Source: Planctomycetota bacterium (GTDB taxonomy: Bacteria > Planctomycetota > MHYJ01 > WSZJ01). Taken from it: 64,000 nt of DNA. Both the position numbers and the translations under genes were made by a program. Each line of letters starts with the position of its first letter. The stretch's first letter is position 1. Shown piece by piece: positions 2,576 to 61,232 of the stretch. The stretch spans positions 1 to 64,000 of the forward strand of contig JBBTCT010000008.1 in assembly GCA_038060895.1 (NCBI GenBank), in the 5' to 3' direction. Below the pieces are notes generated by a model that worked only from the letters and a program-made list of their open reading frames with translations, did not search any database and was not told where the DNA came from.

Positions 2576-3076
2576 ATGATCAACGCCGCCGTGCTCGAGG
2601 CCGTCAACGAGCAGATCAACAACGAGCTCGTTTCGTCCTACATCTACCTGGCGATGTCCGCGCACTGCGACGCGCAGCATTTTCACGGCTTCTCGAAGTG
2701 GCTCCGCATCCAGAGCACGGAGGAATACGGCCACGCGATGAAGCTCCTCGAGTTCCTGCAGAACCGTGGCGGCGGCGTGAAGCTGAATGCGATTCCCGAG
2801 CCGAAGATGAAATTCAAGACGATGCAGGAGGTGTTCGAGGCCGCGCTGAAGCAGGAGCAGGAGGTGTCGCGGCGGATCGACGCGCTCTACGAGCTGGCGC
2901 AGAAGGAGAAGGCGTTCTCGCTCATGGTGGAGCTGCAGTGGTTCCTGACGGAGCAGGTCGAGGAAGAGAAGTCTGCGCGCGACATCTGCGCGAAGTTCCA
3001 GCTCATCCGGAACGACCCGCTTGCCTTGCTGGAGATCGACCGCGAGCTTGGTTCGCGCGGGCCTGAAGCAAAATAG
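2576..3076 (+). CDS. ftnA: Non-heme ferritin
   Basis: NEQINNELVSSYIYLAM, EEYGHAMK and WFLTEQVEEE ferroxidase motifs; ATG 2576 after GGGGGG. Confidence 0.93.
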   Translation: MINAAVLEAVNEQINNELVSSYIYLAMSAHCDAQHFHGFSKWLRIQSTEEYGHAMKLLEFLQNRGGGVKLNAIPEPKMKFKTMQEVFEAALKQEQEVSRRIDALYELAQKEKAFSLMVELQWFLTEQVEEEKSARDICAKFQLIRNDPLALLEIDRELGSRGPEAK

Positions 3077-3095
3077 TCCGTTCCGCTGGCCTGTC

Positions 3096-3126
3096 CCGGC
3101 CGTTCCTCACGAGGAGCGGCCGGCTT
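3096..3126. terminator. Hairpin between convergent genes
   Basis: ccggccgttcctc-ac-gaggagcggccgg followed by cttt. Confidence 0.6.
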
Positions 3127-4727
3127 TATTTCCCGGGCGCGATGTATTTCCCGAACTCCTCCATGTCCGCGTACTTGTTCTCCCACGTCGTGTACATCAC
3201 TCCCTCACAGCCTCCGGCGACCTTCGCCGCGTCGAGCCATTTGAAAATCTGTTTCGGCGCGCCGTCGTAGTACCCCGCGATGAGGGTCTTGTGACCCCGG
3301 TCCGCGAAGAACTTGAGGGATTCGGCGCGCTTGTCGAAGTACCAGCACGCGACGATGACGTCCTTGTCGAGGCCTTCCCAGGAGCCCTTGAGGTCGCCCT
3401 TCACGAGGTAGTAGCCTGCGCGCGCGTTGTGGTTCGGGTCGAACATGTCGCTCCAGACGAAGATGCGGGCGTCCGGGGCGACCTCGCGGACGATCTTCGT
3501 GCAGGCCTTCACGTTGTCGGCCAGGATCGCGCCGGCGTCGAGTTTGCGCTTCACGCACGCGTCGTCCCAGCCCATCACGCGGATCTCGTCGTGGGACATG
3601 AAGTAGGCTTTCGCGCCGAAGGCGGCGTGGACGCGCTTCATCTGGTCGCGCAGGAGATCCAGCGTCTTTTGCTCGGAAGGGCAGACCATGACCTGGCCGT
3701 CGTGCACCGTGATGGCGTGGAAGTACGAGACGCGGAGGCGCGCGCCGTCCTTGAGCGCCGTTTTCAAGACCGGAGGCTCGTGCCAGACCTCGTACCCGCC
3801 TCGCCACGGAACGGTGCCCATTTTCGGGTCGGCCAGCGCTTCGAAGTCCTTCCCCTCGACGAGCGGGAGGCCGCCGTCCTCGGTGACGATGAGCGGCGCG
3901 CCGTCGCGGCGGACGAGATTCACTGGGCCCGATTCCTCGATCCTCGCGTCGTCCCACCAGAGCGAGCCTGAGTCCGCCCCCCAGGCCCCGAGGTAGACGC
4001 CGACTTCGGCCGCTTCGAGCGAGTTGAAAACGACATGGTGCTCCGTCCAGTCCTGCGTCTCCTTCGCGCCGAGGTTCGCGTGGTTGAGGGACCTCTCGCC
4101 TGCCAGCACCGCGACGCGCGGCTCGCCGCGGAAGTCCTTCGTCTTCACGCGCACCGAGATGTGGTACTGGCGCCAGGGCGCCACCTTGACCTTCTGCACG
4201 ATGCGCGCGTTCCGTTCCTTCGGGTCCTTCATGAGCGCTGCGCCGCCGTCCGCGACCACCGTCTCGTCCTTCCAGTCCCACTTCGCCAGGTCCGCCATGT
4301 CCCCGCCGCGCAGTTCGACCGCCGGGTCTGCCACCACGCGCGCCTCGCCGTTCTTCACGACGAAGAGCGCGTCGCGCACGGGAAGCCCCTCCGCCAGGTC
4401 CGGGTCCCGCGACAGCAGACCTTCCGAGTAACCGATCGGAAACACCGCCGGCACAATCTCCAGCTTCAGCCCCGCCGCCACGCGCTTCAGACGGTCCACG
4501 TTCGAGAAGTACCGCTTGTCCATGTCCTCAAGCCGCGAGAATTTCGAGTCCGAAAGCAGGACTCCCGTGTACCCGGCCATCGAGGCACGCCGGAAGAGCG
4601 CCTCGACCTCGTCCAGGTTCTTGTCCACCCACAGGTTGCGCGAAACGTAAATCCAGCGGTCGCGAAGCGGCTCTTCGGCGGCGGCGGCGCCGGCCAGCAC
4701 GAACAGCAGGGCAAATCGGAGTAGCAT
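3126..4727 (-). CDS. Secreted glycoside hydrolase (GH20-like TIM barrel with inserted CBM-like domain)
   Basis: Signal peptide; YFMSHDEIR acidic pair; VWSDMFDP; TQDWTEHHVVFNS CBM-like insert. Confidence 0.7.
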   Translation of the reverse strand: MLLRFALLFVLAGAAAAEEPLRDRWIYVSRNLWVDKNLDEVEALFRRASMAGYTGVLLSDSKFSRLEDMDKRYFSNVDRLKRVAAGLKLEIVPAVFPIGYSEGLLSRDPDLAEGLPVRDALFVVKNGEARVVADPAVELRGGDMADLAKWDWKDETVVADGGAALMKDPKERNARIVQKVKVAPWRQYHISVRVKTKDFRGEPRVAVLAGERSLNHANLGAKETQDWTEHHVVFNSLEAAEVGVYLGAWGADSGSLWWDDARIEESGPVNLVRRDGAPLIVTEDGGLPLVEGKDFEALADPKMGTVPWRGGYEVWHEPPVLKTALKDGARLRVSYFHAITVHDGQVMVCPSEQKTLDLLRDQMKRVHAAFGAKAYFMSHDEIRVMGWDDACVKRKLDAGAILADNVKACTKIVREVAPDARIFVWSDMFDPNHNARAGYYLVKGDLKGSWEGLDKDVIVACWYFDKRAESLKFFADRGHKTLIAGYYDGAPKQIFKWLDAAKVAGGCEGVMYTTWENKYADMEEFGKYIAPGK

Positions 4728-57508: not shown

Positions 57509-57548
57509 GTTAAAGGAAGGATGAGCCGCCTGTTAAGGTCCGGCTAAT
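57509..57548 (-). promoter_or_regulatory. Pho-box-like repeats upstream of pstS
   Basis: Minus-strand attagc/cttaac/ctcatc/tttaac at 11-12 bp spacing. Confidence 0.5.
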
Positions 57549-57626
57549 TCGAGTTGCCGGGAGCCTGCCGGGAGAAGCGTGTTCCGCAAGCTGTTCCCCG
57601 CGCCGCCCCGAGCCTAGACTTCCCGC

Positions 57627-59528
57627 ATGTCTTCTTCCTGGCAGGACCATCTCCGTGCACGGACGGTTTCCGCCGCGCAGGCTGTCGCCTGCGTGAAGCG
57701 CGGCTCGCGCGTTTTCGTGGGATCGGGGTGTGCGGAGCCGGTTCCGCTGGTTGAGGCGCTGGCGGCGCGGCCCGACGTCGAGGACGTCGAAGTGCTGCAC
57801 ATCATGACGGTGGGCCATGCTCCCTACGCAAAAGCGGGGCAGACGAGGCGCTTCCGCGCGAACGCCTTCTTCATCGGCTCGAACGTCCGCGACGCGGTCG
57901 CCCAGGGGACGGCGGACTTCACGCCCATTTTCCTGTCGGAGATTCCGGGGCTGTTCCGGTCGCGGCGAATCCCGCTGGACGTCGCGCTGGTCTGCACGAC
58001 GCCGCCCGACCGGCACGGGTTCGTTTCGCTGGGAGTGTCGGTGGACGTGGTGAAGTCTGCGGTGGAGAGTGCGGACGTCGTCGTCGCCGAGCTGAACCCG
58101 ACGATGCCGAGGACGCACGGCGCGAGTTTCGTGCACGTTGAGGACATCGATTTCTTCGTCCAGGGCACGGCGCCCATCCTGGAGCGGCCGATGGAAGCGC
58201 CCGACAAGGTGTCGCTCGCGATCGGGGCGTTCTGCGCGAGCCTGATCGACCATGGTGCGACGATCCAGATGGGAATCGGCGGCATCCCGAACGCGGTCCT
58301 TGAGAATCTCGGCAACAAGATCGACCTCGGCGTACACACGGAGATGCTCGCAGACGGCGCAATCCCGCTGATCGAGGCCGGCGTCATCAACGGCCGCCGA
58401 AAAACTCTTCATCCACGCAAGGCCGTGACGTCCTTCTGCATGGGCTCGCGCCGCCTCTACGACTTCGTTGACGACAATCCCTTCTTCGAGTTCCTGCCGA
58501 ACGAATTCGTCAACGACCCTTTCGTCATCGCGAAGAACGACCGCATGGTCTCGATCAACTCCGCGCTCCAGATCGACCTCACCGGCCAGGTCTGCGCGGA
58601 CTCCATCGGGACCCGCTTCTACTCCGGCATCGGCGGCCAGGTGGATTTCATCCGCGGCGCCGCCCGGTCGGCCGGAGGGCGCAGCATCATCGCCATCGAG
58701 TCCACGGCGAAGCAGGGGACTCTGTCGCGGATCGTCCCCGTGCTGGCGGAGGGAGCGGGCGTCGTCACGACGCGCGGCGACGTCCATACCGTCGTGACGG
58801 AGTACGGCATTGCGGAATTGAAGGGACGCACGGTGCGCGAACGTGCGCTGTCCCTGATCAGTGTTTCGCATCCGGACTTCCGCGGGGAACTGCTCGCGGC
58901 GGCAAAGAAGCGCCACATCGTTGCGGTCGACCAGGTGCCGTGGCCTGAGAAGGGCCGGCCGTACCCGGTCGAGCTGGAAGCACGGGAATCGTTTGGCGGC
59001 GCGGAGGTGTTCTTCAGGCCTCTCCGCCCCGACGACGAGCGGCTCCTGCGCGCGTTCTTCTACTCGCACTCGCCCGAGACGGTGTACCAGCGCTACGGCG
59101 CTTCGCTCAAGTCGCTCACCCCTCAGCAGATCCAGGACCAGTGCGCACTCGATTATGACTCCGAGATGGCGATCGCCGGCTTCGTCCGTGACGGCGAGGG
59201 TGAGCGCCTCATCGCCCTCGGCCGCTACGAACTCGAAAGGTCTTCCGGATTCGCCGACCTCAACTTCGCCGTCTCCGAGGACTTCCAGGGCCGCGGCGTC
59301 GGCACCTGGCTCTTCAAGCGCCTTGCGCGCGTCGCCCGCGAACGCGGCATCGGCGGCTTCACGGGAGTCGTGCTCGCCGGAAACGCGCGGATGATGGGGA
59401 TCTTCCACAAGAGCGGCGAACCAGTGGAGTCGAGGCTCGAGGACGGAAGGTACCGCGTAGTCGTCCGGTTCGGGGGTCACCCAACAGGAGATCGCGTTCA
59501 TGCAACCATCGTTTCGGGGAGCCCGTGA
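57627..59528 (+). CDS. Acetyl-CoA hydrolase/CoA-transferase fused to a C-terminal GNAT domain
   Basis: QMGIGGIP, GVHTEM, SGIGGQVDF, VVTEYGIA; C-terminal FQGRGVG...N..M..IF. Confidence 0.92.
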   Translation: MSSSWQDHLRARTVSAAQAVACVKRGSRVFVGSGCAEPVPLVEALAARPDVEDVEVLHIMTVGHAPYAKAGQTRRFRANAFFIGSNVRDAVAQGTADFTPIFLSEIPGLFRSRRIPLDVALVCTTPPDRHGFVSLGVSVDVVKSAVESADVVVAELNPTMPRTHGASFVHVEDIDFFVQGTAPILERPMEAPDKVSLAIGAFCASLIDHGATIQMGIGGIPNAVLENLGNKIDLGVHTEMLADGAIPLIEAGVINGRRKTLHPRKAVTSFCMGSRRLYDFVDDNPFFEFLPNEFVNDPFVIAKNDRMVSINSALQIDLTGQVCADSIGTRFYSGIGGQVDFIRGAARSAGGRSIIAIESTAKQGTLSRIVPVLAEGAGVVTTRGDVHTVVTEYGIAELKGRTVRERALSLISVSHPDFRGELLAAAKKRHIVAVDQVPWPEKGRPYPVELEARESFGGAEVFFRPLRPDDERLLRAFFYSHSPETVYQRYGASLKSLTPQQIQDQCALDYDSEMAIAGFVRDGEGERLIALGRYELERSSGFADLNFAVSEDFQGRGVGTWLFKRLARVARERGIGGFTGVVLAGNARMMGIFHKSGEPVESRLEDGRYRVVVRFGGHPTGDRVHATIVSGSP

Positions 59529-60378
59529 CGTCCTTTCAGTAACGTTTCTCCTTCTGCTGATAACCGGCTCCGCCTCCGCCCAGCTTGTCACGGAAAACGC
59601 CGGCACCGTTTCTCCCGAGACGCCGCTCGCCCGGCTCGTCATCAATGCGGCGCAGTGGCGGCACGTGGACGAGTTCTCGGCGGTCGGAGAGTTTCACTAC
59701 GGATTCCACCCCCGCTTCGAGGGCTCCGTGTCCGTTCCGTTCATCTACCGGTACTTCGAGATCGGCAATAACGATGACGAAGAGATCGCAGGCTTCGGAG
59801 ACGTCGCACTGAAGGGCAAGGTCGTGGTGCACAAGGAGGACGGCGTCATGACCTCCATGCGGACCGCGGTGCTGGCGGGGATCGAATTCCCGACGGGGAA
59901 GTGGGATGACCGGATCGGCGACGCAACGGAACCTTACGCGCGTAAGTTGCAACTCGGAAGCGGCACGTTCGATTTTACGCTCGGCCTGGCGTTCACCTAC
60001 ATCAACGACCGGCATCGCATCGCCATCGACGCGCTCGGCCGGGCGAGCACCTCACGGGACAACGTGAGCCCGGGTCCCGTGCTCCGGGTCGACCTGGCGT
60101 ACTGGTTCCGGCTGTTCCCGGCAGTTTTCGAGCCGGGAGAATCGGGGATGGAGCTCCGGCTCGTCGTGGATGCCTGGTACCTCCACCGGTACCACACGCG
60201 CGGGGAAAAGCTGGACGACAGCGGCGACCAGGTCTGGCTGGCGCCCGGACTGCAGTTTTACGCGACGAACTGGCTGCTTCTTGAAGGGAACGCAGCGTAC
60301 GCGCTGATGGACACGACGGACGACGAGTATGGCCGCGCGCGCTGGAGCGCTTTCGTGGCGGTCAAGATCCTGTTCTGA
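59500..60378 (+). CDS. Outer-membrane beta-barrel protein (transporter/MetA-pathway-like)
   Basis: AGGAG RBS, signal peptide, GFGDV.L.GK, PTG...LQLGSGTFD, alternating beta-strands, terminal Phe. Confidence 0.8.
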   Translation: MQPSFRGARDVLSVTFLLLLITGSASAQLVTENAGTVSPETPLARLVINAAQWRHVDEFSAVGEFHYGFHPRFEGSVSVPFIYRYFEIGNNDDEEIAGFGDVALKGKVVVHKEDGVMTSMRTAVLAGIEFPTGKWDDRIGDATEPYARKLQLGSGTFDFTLGLAFTYINDRHRIAIDALGRASTSRDNVSPGPVLRVDLAYWFRLFPAVFEPGESGMELRLVVDAWYLHRYHTRGEKLDDSGDQVWLAPGLQFYATNWLLLEGNAAYALMDTTDDEYGRARWSAFVAVKILF

Positions 60379-60407
60379 GCCCTGCGGCCACTCTTTAGGA
60401 TGCACCC

Positions 60408-60872
60408 ATGCGATACCTGCCCTGGTTCATCCTCACCCTCGCTGGCTGCGCCGTGGCGCCGCCTGCCGGACCTGCGCCCACCGAGGGCATTCTCAGCGTC
60501 ATCGTAGACATCTCCGGAATGGAGTGAAGCCCCTGAGTCAAGAGCGTCACGGACGCTCTGGGACGCCTGGATGGCGTCGAAAACGTCTCTGTCGATCTGC
60601 AGAACGGCAAGGCGACCTTGCGTCCCCGGCTCTCTGCCCGGATCCAGGCCGGCGAAGTTTTCGAGGCACTCAGCCACGCGGGATATCGCGGTGACGCGGT
60701 GACATTCGAAGTCACGGGCGAGGTGAAGCGTTCCGCTTCCGCGGGCTTCATTCTTCCGGGCGACACCGAGCCGTGGTTGTCGCTGCCTGAGCCCGCACCG
60801 CCGGACGGGCCTGCGCGGCTCAAGGTGCGGATTCTGCCCGACGGAAAGGTCGAACTTCTCGACGGTTTGTAA
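60408..60872 (+). CDS. HMA (MerP/CopZ-like) lipoprotein with two in-frame TGA codons at the metal site; candidate UxxU selenoprotein, 154 aa
   Basis: AGGA RBS; MRYLPWFILTLAGC lipobox; VDISGME*SP*VKSVTDALGRLDGVENVSVDLQNGKATL with TGA at 60525 and 60534 at the CxxC positions; the frame continues to TAA 60872. Confidence 0.85.
60537..60578 (+). promoter_or_regulatory. Two candidate bacterial SECIS hairpins
   Basis: AGAGCGTC-ACG-GACGCTCT (60541-60559) and GACGCC-TGGAT-GGCGTC (60562-60578) directly 3' of the UGA codons. Confidence 0.55.
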
Positions 60873-60875
60873 AGG

Positions 60876-61232
60876 CTAGGCGGGGAATCGAGTCGAGTAG
60901 GCCGCGCGAGCCTCGGCCATGAAGGCCTGGAGCGTCAGCAGCTTCAGAATGCCGCCCCTGGCCCGCACGGCGCCCGACGCAGCCGCCTGCGCGACGGGCA
61001 GTCGCCCCGAGAGGATTTCGTGCGCCGCCGCGCAAGTCAGCGTGAGCTCAACCGCCGGCTCCGGATGCTCTTCCGCCGATACCGAAAACGGGTCGAGCGA
61101 CAGGTCCATCACGACGAATGAAACCGGCGCAAGCAGCCGGAACTGCAGCACGGCGCCGGACTTCTTCGCCGCCGCGCACGCTTCCGGGCTCGTCCGCATT
61201 CCCTCGAACAGCGCGATGAACTCCGCGCTCAC
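60876..61232 (-). CDS. SCP2 sterol/lipid-binding domain protein
   Basis: LSGRLPVAQAAASGAVRARGG..KLL SCP2 signature; overlaps the cysS stop. Confidence 0.8.
   Translation of the reverse strand: MSAEFIALFEGMRTSPEACAAAKKSGAVLQFRLLAPVSFVVMDLSLDPFSVSAEEHPEPAVELTLTCAAAHEILSGRLPVAQAAASGAVRARGGILKLLTLQAFMAEARAAYSTRFPA

Follow-up and report, generated by a model that had tools for sequence, protein, structure and literature searches.

A conserved HMA lipoprotein gene of Planctomycetota with two predicted selenocysteines, a two-hairpin downstream element and an outer-membrane channel partner

The locus and its reading frame

We analyzed a stretch of 64,000 nt from a Planctomycetota bacterium (assembly GCA_038060895.1, contig JBBTCT010000008.1, positions 1–64,000, forward strand), which is called the window in the following. 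Its plus strand carries a frame of 154 codons at 60408–60872 when TGA is read as selenocysteine (Sec, U), and judging from sequence comparison this interval is very probably a real, conserved gene for an HMA-domain lipoprotein with two Sec residues. Positions of all features are collected in Table 1. In order, the parts of the translation read MRYLPWFILTLAGC-AVAPPAGPAPTEG-ILSVIVDISGME-U-SP-U-VKSVTDALGRLDGV..., where the lipobox LAGC occupies residues 11–14 (Cys14 codon at 60447–60449) and is followed by a Pro/Ala linker (AVAPPAGPAP). The metal loop GMEUSPU (residues 37–43) has Sec codons at both Cys columns of the motif GMxCxxC. A list of open reading frames (ORFs) made with genetic code table 11 retains the 84-residue tail (60618–60872) as the sole piece of this frame. 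The initial annotation of this DNA had described the ribosome-binding site, the lipobox with Cys14, the linker, the HMA domain, the GME-TGA-SP-TGA site and the 84-residue tail, and all of these were found again in the sequence. It had also argued against an alternative genetic code, which is borne out by the use of TGA in the window: TGA closes 13 of the 34 non-overlapping ORFs of at least 250 residues, including the gene directly upstream and cysS. The organism thus does not read TGA as sense in general, and an alternative code was ruled out on these grounds. A scan for promoters and terminators gave no signal exceeding that of shuffled sequences.

Table 1. Coordinates of the features at the lipoprotein locus, numbered from the first letter of the window
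Feature	Position	Strand	Basis or remark
Upstream partner: 292-residue outer-membrane beta-barrel with signal peptide	59500..60378	+	PF13557 match, AF2 model, synteny
AGGA, ribosome-binding-like motif	60396..60399	+	8 nt upstream of ATG 60408; read from sequence
Lipoprotein signal peptide MRYLPWFILTLAG and lipobox Cys14	60408..60449	+	Translation
HMA domain, residues 33–93	60504..60686	+	Pfam PF00403
In-frame TGA1, codon 40, column of the first metal-ligand Cys, read as Sec	60525..60527	+	Conserved in 20/20 family sequences
In-frame TGA2, codon 43, column of the second metal-ligand Cys, read as Sec	60534..60536	+	Conserved in 20/20 family sequences
Hairpin 1	60541..60559	+	8-bp stem, 3-nt loop
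Hairpin 2	60562..60578	+	6-bp stem, loop UGGAU
C-terminal beta-strand extension diagnostic of the subfamily, residues ~98–154	60699..60869	+	AF2 strands; aligns in all 11 members
Stop codon TAA	60870..60872	+	Sequence and translation

Both TGAs are conserved at columns that carry Cys in relatives

The two TGAs are shared by 20 distinct family members from Planctomycetota genomes, namely the window gene and 19 others; ten aligned members show 23–66% protein identity to the window protein. A six-frame search of 61 related genomes yielded orthologues in five of the seven genomes of the same genus (51–65% identity, all with GMEUSPU), and a gene at 33% identity in another family of the same class, which reads GMEULPU. 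When the DNA pattern GMEUxPU...RL[DE] was applied to one genome each for 185,579 species, 10 loci were found, six of them already known and four new, and all are titled Planctomycetota, Planctomycetia or Brocadiia. Among 401 genomes of the phylum, a profile search found 23 matches that extend at least to profile position 130: two in-frame TGAs are present in 19 of them, one in two and none in two. Thirteen of the profile-search loci were read. Two were repeats, nine were new UxxU lipoprotein genes with the motifs GLEUMPU, GLEULPU, GMEULPU, KLKUMGU, RIEULLU and PLEULPU, one carries CxxU (L068) and one UxxC (L070). Furthermore, P0017 is a CxxC homologue that possesses the C-terminal extension, and P0084, P0119 and P0150 are CxxC relatives with GCPFC; full-length CxxC forms are thus present in protein databases. 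The initial annotation had envisaged homologues with UxxU, CxxU, UxxC and CxxC at these two columns, and all four combinations occur. Its view that two chance nonsense mutations on exactly these codons are unlikely agrees with the recurrence of both TGAs, column for column, in 19 further distinct genes. Predicted Sec in some members and Cys in others at one and the same column is what one usually sees at a genuine Sec site.

The ratio of non-synonymous to synonymous substitution rates (dN/dS), roughly estimated, was below 1 in 15 of 15 same-genus orthologue pairs, with values of 0.22–0.75 before the TGAs and 0.24–0.90 after them. The initial annotation had named Cys-only homologues together with relaxed selection on this copy as an outcome that would speak against Sec; orthologues keep both TGAs, and dN/dS stays below 1 on both sides. 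In one orthologue (L024, genome G007, oriented coordinates 1501–2190) the usual stop is absent and the frame runs on for ~75 extra low-complexity residues to a TGA; this extension may be genuine, or it may reflect the loss of the stop or a fault of the assembly. The eight best matches in a set of 5.8 billion proteins are fragments of 105–115 residues, six of which start just past TGA2. Such fragmentary calls are the expected fate of Sec genes under automatic annotation.

The source genome encodes the Sec machinery and independent contigs carry both TGAs

The source genome (5.4 Mb in 47 contigs, 86.5% complete) contains selA (541 bits), selB (344 bits, with neighbouring pieces), selD (364 bits, with one in-frame TGA of its own) and selC, the gene for tRNA-Sec (71.7 bits; called as tRNA-SeC with anticodon TCA by ARAGORN). 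All four scores exceed the curated cut-offs, so the genes on which the initial annotation had made a Sec reading depend are present. The selD gene is a selenoprotein gene itself (SCAG-U-ASK; L010, contig C2:48628–49548, minus strand). Its UGA is followed after 12 nt by the hairpin GGUCC-GGC-GGACC and next by GCCCU-GGA-AGGGC, which has a loop of the GGA type. A copy of lgt lies ~1.3 kb from selD on the same strand.

Both TGAs are free of differences in contigs of two other DNA studies (X3 records 3 and 5; X9 record 14). A metatranscriptome contig (X7 record 10) corresponds to 60211–60544, from the end of the channel gene through both TGAs, and differs from the window at one intergenic site (C>T at 60388). 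These independent DNA and RNA data are assembled contigs that show presence, not expression level. TGC or TGT at these codons had been named beforehand as a finding that would overturn the Sec reading; the contigs from two DNA studies and one RNA library have TGA.

Two covarying hairpins lie downstream of the TGAs

Two hairpins follow the second TGA. Hairpin 1 (stem AGAGCGUC/GACGCUCU; minimum free energy (MFE) -11.1 kcal/mol) begins 4 nt past TGA2, and its loop lies 21 nt past TGA1 and 12 nt past TGA2. Hairpin 2 has the stem GACGCC/GGCGUC and in the window copy an MFE of -10.1 kcal/mol, with its loop 31 nt past TGA2 and 40 nt past TGA1. In an alignment of 20 sequences, nine of which came from the protein profile search and not from the DNA pattern, 96.8% of the cells of both hairpins are paired and compensatory changes occur in 9 of 14 pairs (20 cells). 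Taken separately, hairpin 1 shows 95% paired cells with compensation in six of its eight pairs, and hairpin 2 shows 99.2% with compensation in three of six. None of 500 shuffles matched the observed values, and shifted registers paired at 31–49%. The first 11 sequences had given 98.1% paired cells with five compensatory pairs, and RNAalifold predicts the same two helices. Several of the compensations alter amino acids on both arms, for example from Gly-Val...Asp-Ala to Ala-Val...Asn-Gly.

As a control, 13 CxxC HMA domains from the same loci were compared in the same register; three chance matches that lie in non-coding frames and two genes belonging to another UxxU type were excluded. In these domains only 2–6 of 8 and 1–5 of 6 positions pair, compared with 7–8 of 8 and 5–6 of 6 in the first 11 family sequences. 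The CxxU relative retains hairpin 2 (6/6 in register); for hairpin 1 a shifted stem can be drawn by eye, but the computed fold pairs that stretch otherwise.

The bacterial model of the selenocysteine insertion sequence (SECIS), as given in the legend of Fig. 2 of PMC13188914, has a loop of 3–9 nt, a stem of 4–16 bp, G in the first two loop positions, a distance of 16–37 nt from UGA to loop and an MFE of -7.5 kcal/mol or lower. For UGA2, hairpin 2 agrees with this model on every point (spacing of 31 nt). Across the family its loop has G at position 1 or 2 in 20 of 20 sequences, and its MFE ranges from -7.4 to -10.1 kcal/mol. Hairpin 1 lies within the spacing range given there for UGA1 (21 nt). 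Hairpin 2 is therefore the likeliest candidate for a SECIS loop that would bind SelB, and hairpin 1 may be a SECIS of its own for UGA1, a spacer or a pause element. The assignment of each hairpin to one UGA is putative in either case.

The predicted lipoprotein has an HMA fold with a C-terminal extension

The Pfam HMA model PF00403 matches the translation with an E-value of 6.9e-13 (49.2 bits, cut-off 24.8). An AlphaFold 2 (AF2) model built with an 11-sequence alignment reached a mean predicted local distance difference test score (pLDDT) of 86.8 and a predicted template modelling (TM) score of 0.75, and shows the HMA fold followed by four more strands to residue 153. The beta-alpha-beta-beta-alpha-beta elements are E27–34, H41–52, E57–63, E68–73, H81–90 and E98–108; the C-terminal strands comprise residues 98–108, 112–115, 134–142 and 148–153, in a block with pLDDT 90–94. 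In Foldseek the best match was MerP (1osd) among many near-equal HMA domains (TM 0.76–0.84 over the HMA targets), and VIA gave Z-scores of 8–9.7 to HMA domains. Searches with the whole model by either program matched nothing outside the HMA part, the extension not having been searched on its own. The lipobox, whose general motif is [LVI][ASTVI][GAS]C, has its Cys column invariant in all 11 aligned members, and the source genome contains lgt (149 and 127.5 bits) and lspA (92.8 and 90.9 bits).

An outer-membrane channel gene accompanies the lipoprotein gene

The gene directly upstream ends with a TGA stop 29 nt before the lipoprotein start and has a weak match to PF13557 (Phenol_MetA_deg; 24.3 bits, cut-off 22). 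Its AF2 model is a beta-barrel (pLDDT 81.2) with 13 DSSP strands, which we take to be a 12-stranded channel as in its structural matches. In Foldseek these were FapF (5o65; E-value 2e-12, TM 0.69–0.72) and the COG4313 channel 4rl8 (TM 0.70–0.76). In 17 of the 20 UxxU loci the channel gene immediately precedes the lipoprotein gene, with both on one strand. A complex prediction with channel residues 28–292 and lipoprotein residues 44–154, made without alignments, gave a score of 0.04 and a mark of 0.34 and is uninformative on binding.

In the genus of the window the further neighbours have no relation to the pair: they are a fusion of acetyl-CoA hydrolase and GNAT, an SCP2-like gene and cysS. 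The last 29 nt of the hydrolase gene are shared with the start of the channel gene, and an ORF of 711 residues at 57510–59645 on the minus strand lies antisense to this Pfam-supported hydrolase/GNAT gene (57627–59528, plus strand); it is probably a spurious high-GC frame. Among five distant loci examined, three have a MerR-family regulator directly upstream of the channel gene. The best NCBIfam match of these regulators is the Hg-responsive MerR model (105–132 bits, under the cut-off of 150.85). Two of the three regulators have Cys at all three positions of the Hg-binding Cys in solved MerR, and the third has Pro at the first position. One of the five distant loci contains a MerC-like gene, and in another a CusA/CzcA pump gene (605 bits) lies immediately upstream. 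The MerC-like protein (L045, plus coordinates 2614–3369, minus strand) carries an N-terminal domain matching NF049942, a 'DF family (seleno)protein' model, with 45 bits (cut-off 70). The context of the distant members indicates a putative part in handling thiophilic-metal stress in the periplasm. It does not point to a classical mer import-and-reduce pathway.

Comparison with known systems

An Olavius symbiont study reportedly made the first prediction of a UxxU protein, a 'putative mercuric reductase', according to entries in review tables. A UxxU HMA family already exists in NCBIfam as NF041115 ('UxxU_metal_bind', metal-binding (seleno)protein). A UxxU HMA protein is also given as a predicted two-Sec protein in two reviews (PMC9312934, PMC13188914). 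The initial annotation had known of no characterised UxxU HMA lipoprotein. The UxxU motif as such has precedents in NF041115 and both reviews; the lipoprotein subfamily is distinct, and NF041115 is itself predicted only.

Like the window protein, NF041115 describes an HMA-type domain with Sec at both ligand positions that is predicted and uncharacterised. The window protein scores only 33.7 bits against a cut-off of 95, and while the NF041115 model comprises 74 positions in a single domain, the 154 residues of the window protein also include a lipoprotein signal, a Pro/Ala linker and a C-terminal beta extension of ~55 residues. The family of the window protein further differs from NF041115 in its pairing with a gene for an outer-membrane channel, and its members came only from Planctomycetota genomes in the searches made here. 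MerP (TIGR02052; PDB 1osd and 1afi) shares the exported single HMA domain and the GMxCxxC-type loop, and 1osd is the top Foldseek match of the window model (TM 0.80 on the target, root mean square deviation 1.8 over 68 columns). However, the window protein scores 25.5 bits against TIGR02052 (cut-off 92.55) and differs from MerP by Sec in place of Cys, by a lipid anchor instead of a soluble form and by the extra C-terminal part. As with MerP in mer operons, one distant family member lies in a cluster with MerR and MerC-like genes.

The best sequence-profile matches are chaperones of the CopZ/Atx1 type with the same fold (NF047957, 45.5 bits; NF033795, 43.6 bits). These scores lie below the family cut-offs (85 and 91 bits), and CopZ is cytoplasmic and Cys-based, unlike the window protein. 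NF045683, a MerT/CopZ fusion-like heavy metal transport selenoprotein, also has an HMA-like domain (23.4 bits, cut-off 375), but as a membrane-transporter fusion it differs in architecture. No NCBIfam model reaches its cut-off with the window protein. The upstream partner resembles the COG4313/FapF channels (4rl8, 5o65) with a TM of ~0.7 at a sequence identity of 11–18%. Known members of this group transport hydrophobic compounds or amyloid subunits, and to our knowledge no COG4313/FapF-type channel is paired with an HMA protein. The literature searched describes neither a lipoprotein UxxU HMA family nor a channel partner, in main texts whose supplementary tables (e.g. S9 Table of PMC4807772, planctomycete selenoprotein candidates) could list the family. 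The family belongs to the known UxxU HMA selenoproteins, yet it is a distinct and misannotated subfamily with its own architecture, partner and two-hairpin element.

Other candidate multi-Sec genes with HMA-like domains

The source genome contains a second candidate for a multi-Sec lipoprotein on contig C1 (~25.0–26.4 kb, minus strand; L053, plus coordinates ~1102–1770). It has a lipobox, an HMA-like domain with GLT-U-LG-U-P and then a thioredoxin-like domain with DFSGPG-U-VTC, so that three in-frame TGAs precede the probable true TGA stop. NF041115 is the best model for its HMA part (49.2 bits, cut-off 95), and DsbD and thioredoxin models match weakly. One hairpin, GCCCU-GGA-GGGGC, lies 3′ of its UxxU. 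A similar HMA(UxxU)–thioredoxin-like gene was found in genome G053 (L038, plus coordinates 612–1325), with GKT-U-MA-U, DCMGDD-U-AAC and a fourth in-frame TGA at GIPDT-U-ILGPDG. Upstream of it lies a gene for a Cys-rich membrane protein whose terminal HMA domain reads GMT-U-PQSC. Two further HMA-like genes, L033 (genome G025; GL-U-GAS-U) and L032 (genome G012; R-U-ADG-U), have two in-frame TGAs with the three-residue spacing UxxxU and not UxxU.

Interpretation and alternative explanations

The Sec reading that the initial annotation had proposed is strongly supported by the Sec machinery, the ordinary use of TGA as a stop elsewhere, the conserved TGAs, the Sec/Cys columns, selection, independent contigs and hairpin covariation. 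As a whole, we consider it likely that the locus is an intact selenoprotein gene for a lipid-anchored, periplasmic, soft-metal-binding HMA protein that works together with the channel; function as a periplasmic soft-metal binder is likewise likely. According to this proposal, UGA40 and UGA43 would be decoded as Sec by the genome's own SelA, SelB, SelD and tRNA-Sec, probably directed by the two conserved hairpins downstream of UGA2. The mature protein would be tethered via Cys14 and display a bis-selenolate site, or a diselenide when oxidised, for a thiophilic metal ion, much as the initial annotation had envisaged. Our guess for this ion would be Hg(II) or another soft divalent ion in the first place and Cu(I)/Ag(I) in the second. 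The lipoprotein would act jointly with the outer-membrane channel encoded directly upstream, and its most likely role would be to sequester the ion and hand it off at the outer membrane, out of the periplasm, as detoxification. Which metal is bound, which way it is transported and a physical contact with the channel are all inferred.

Two arrangements would account for decoding by two hairpins. They could form a tandem SECIS with one hairpin per codon (hairpin 1 for UGA1, hairpin 2 for UGA2), or hairpin 2 could be the single SECIS, with hairpin 1 as a collapsible spacer through which both UGAs come within its range. In its most specific form the proposal combines dedicated two-hairpin decoding of UGAs 9 nt apart with bis-selenolate/diselenide capture of Hg(II)-like ions and their hand-off to a dedicated 12-stranded outer-membrane channel; this combination is offered tentatively, and we would rather doubt that all of it holds.

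Several observations weigh against the interpretation as a Sec-containing metal-binding lipoprotein. The evidence for Sec insertion at both UGAs is wholly comparative, and no Rfam match was found in 60350–60900 (4227 families, E-value up to 10). The folding of the 72-nt region is unexceptional compared with shuffles (z -1.2; 26 of 200 shuffles were as good), and because of this the case for an RNA structure rests on covariation and not on energy. The 40 nt from hairpin 2 to UGA1 lie slightly beyond the 16–37 nt stated in PMC13188914. In hairpin 1 the rule of a loop G is obeyed by 13 of 20 sequences, and the window copy (ACG) is not among them. The six-frame search gave no match in two of the seven same-genus genomes (89% and 81% complete), and P0166 (163 residues, from a representative library) is a full-length member with lipobox that has Glu and Ala at the ligand columns (GVDEWPAARAV). 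Synonymous divergence is saturated in the same-genus pairs (dS 0.46–1.44), which makes dN/dS rough, and the contig from the RNA library could stem from contaminating DNA. The channel gene was not matched within the 1.5-kb flanks in three of 20 loci. MerT and MerC were not found in the source genome (86.5% complete), the best MerA-like match there (414.5 bits) is below the cut-off of 454.45, and no metal regulator or mer gene adjoins the window copy; for these reasons the metal and the direction of transport are guesses.

Among the alternatives, the one that survives best takes the UxxU site as a redox centre, i.e. a periplasmic diselenide/selenol oxidoreductase or redox sensor on an HMA scaffold. 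The periplasm is oxidising and a diselenide would form readily there, P0166 is a homologue without either ligand, and the second lipoprotein of the same genome fuses an HMA-like UxxU domain to a thioredoxin-like domain (GPG-U-VTC). In addition, the prokaryotic UxxU/UxxC motifs catalogued in tables of PMC9312934 and PMC13188914 are mostly redox motifs. However, the fold and loop are of the metal-binding HMA type with MerP, CopZ and ATPase metal-binding domains as best matches. Distant members have metal-specific genes next to them, namely those for MerR-type regulators with a Cys triad, for a CusA/CzcA pump and for a MerC-like protein, and no conserved redox partner gene adjoins the family. We regard a redox centre as quite unlikely.

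It is more improbable still that the UGAs are passed without Sec, by near-cognate read-through with Trp or Cys, or that the gene is expressed as a lipopeptide of 39 residues plus a separately started C-terminal fragment. Public calls in several relatives do start straight after TGA2, where these have ATG or GTG (P0002–P0009), and the comparative nature of the Sec evidence as well as the loop of hairpin 1 in the window count in favour of such expression. In the window, however, the codon after TGA2 is GTC, which is no start, and the earliest start available under table 11, TTG at 60618, falls within the HMA fold. A C-terminal fragment would be without strand 1 and the metal loop. Both TGAs are invariant at ligand columns that have Cys in relatives, and Sec machinery and two covarying hairpins are present. 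Finally, two stops within a domain and a fragmented assembly (47 contigs, 86.5% complete) would suggest a pseudogene that acquired two nonsense mutations, or else a fault of sequencing or assembly. This is hardly credible and effectively refuted, as both TGAs are shared by 20 distinct genes with aligned identities from 66% down to 23%, the frame is open on both sides with dN/dS below 1, and independent contigs from three other studies are identical at the TGAs.

If our interpretation as a conserved Sec-containing lipoprotein is right, the family bears on several questions. Public gene calls are truncated at the UxxU site, and the annotation of a conserved Planctomycetota gene pair is corrected by this finding. 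Two UGAs three codons apart pose a decoding puzzle, given that every UGA read as Sec in bacteria requires a hairpin at a fixed distance, and the family provides a two-hairpin solution in 20 natural versions, with compensatory changes, that can be used for reporter and SelB-binding work. With regard to metal chemistry, both ligands of the classic CxxC site would be selenium, and natural CxxU, UxxC and CxxC relatives are available for comparison; such a comparison would be a direct test of what selenolates contribute to soft-metal binding in an oxidising compartment. Capture by the lipoprotein and hand-off to the channel would, if true, represent a so far undescribed metal route across the outer membrane.

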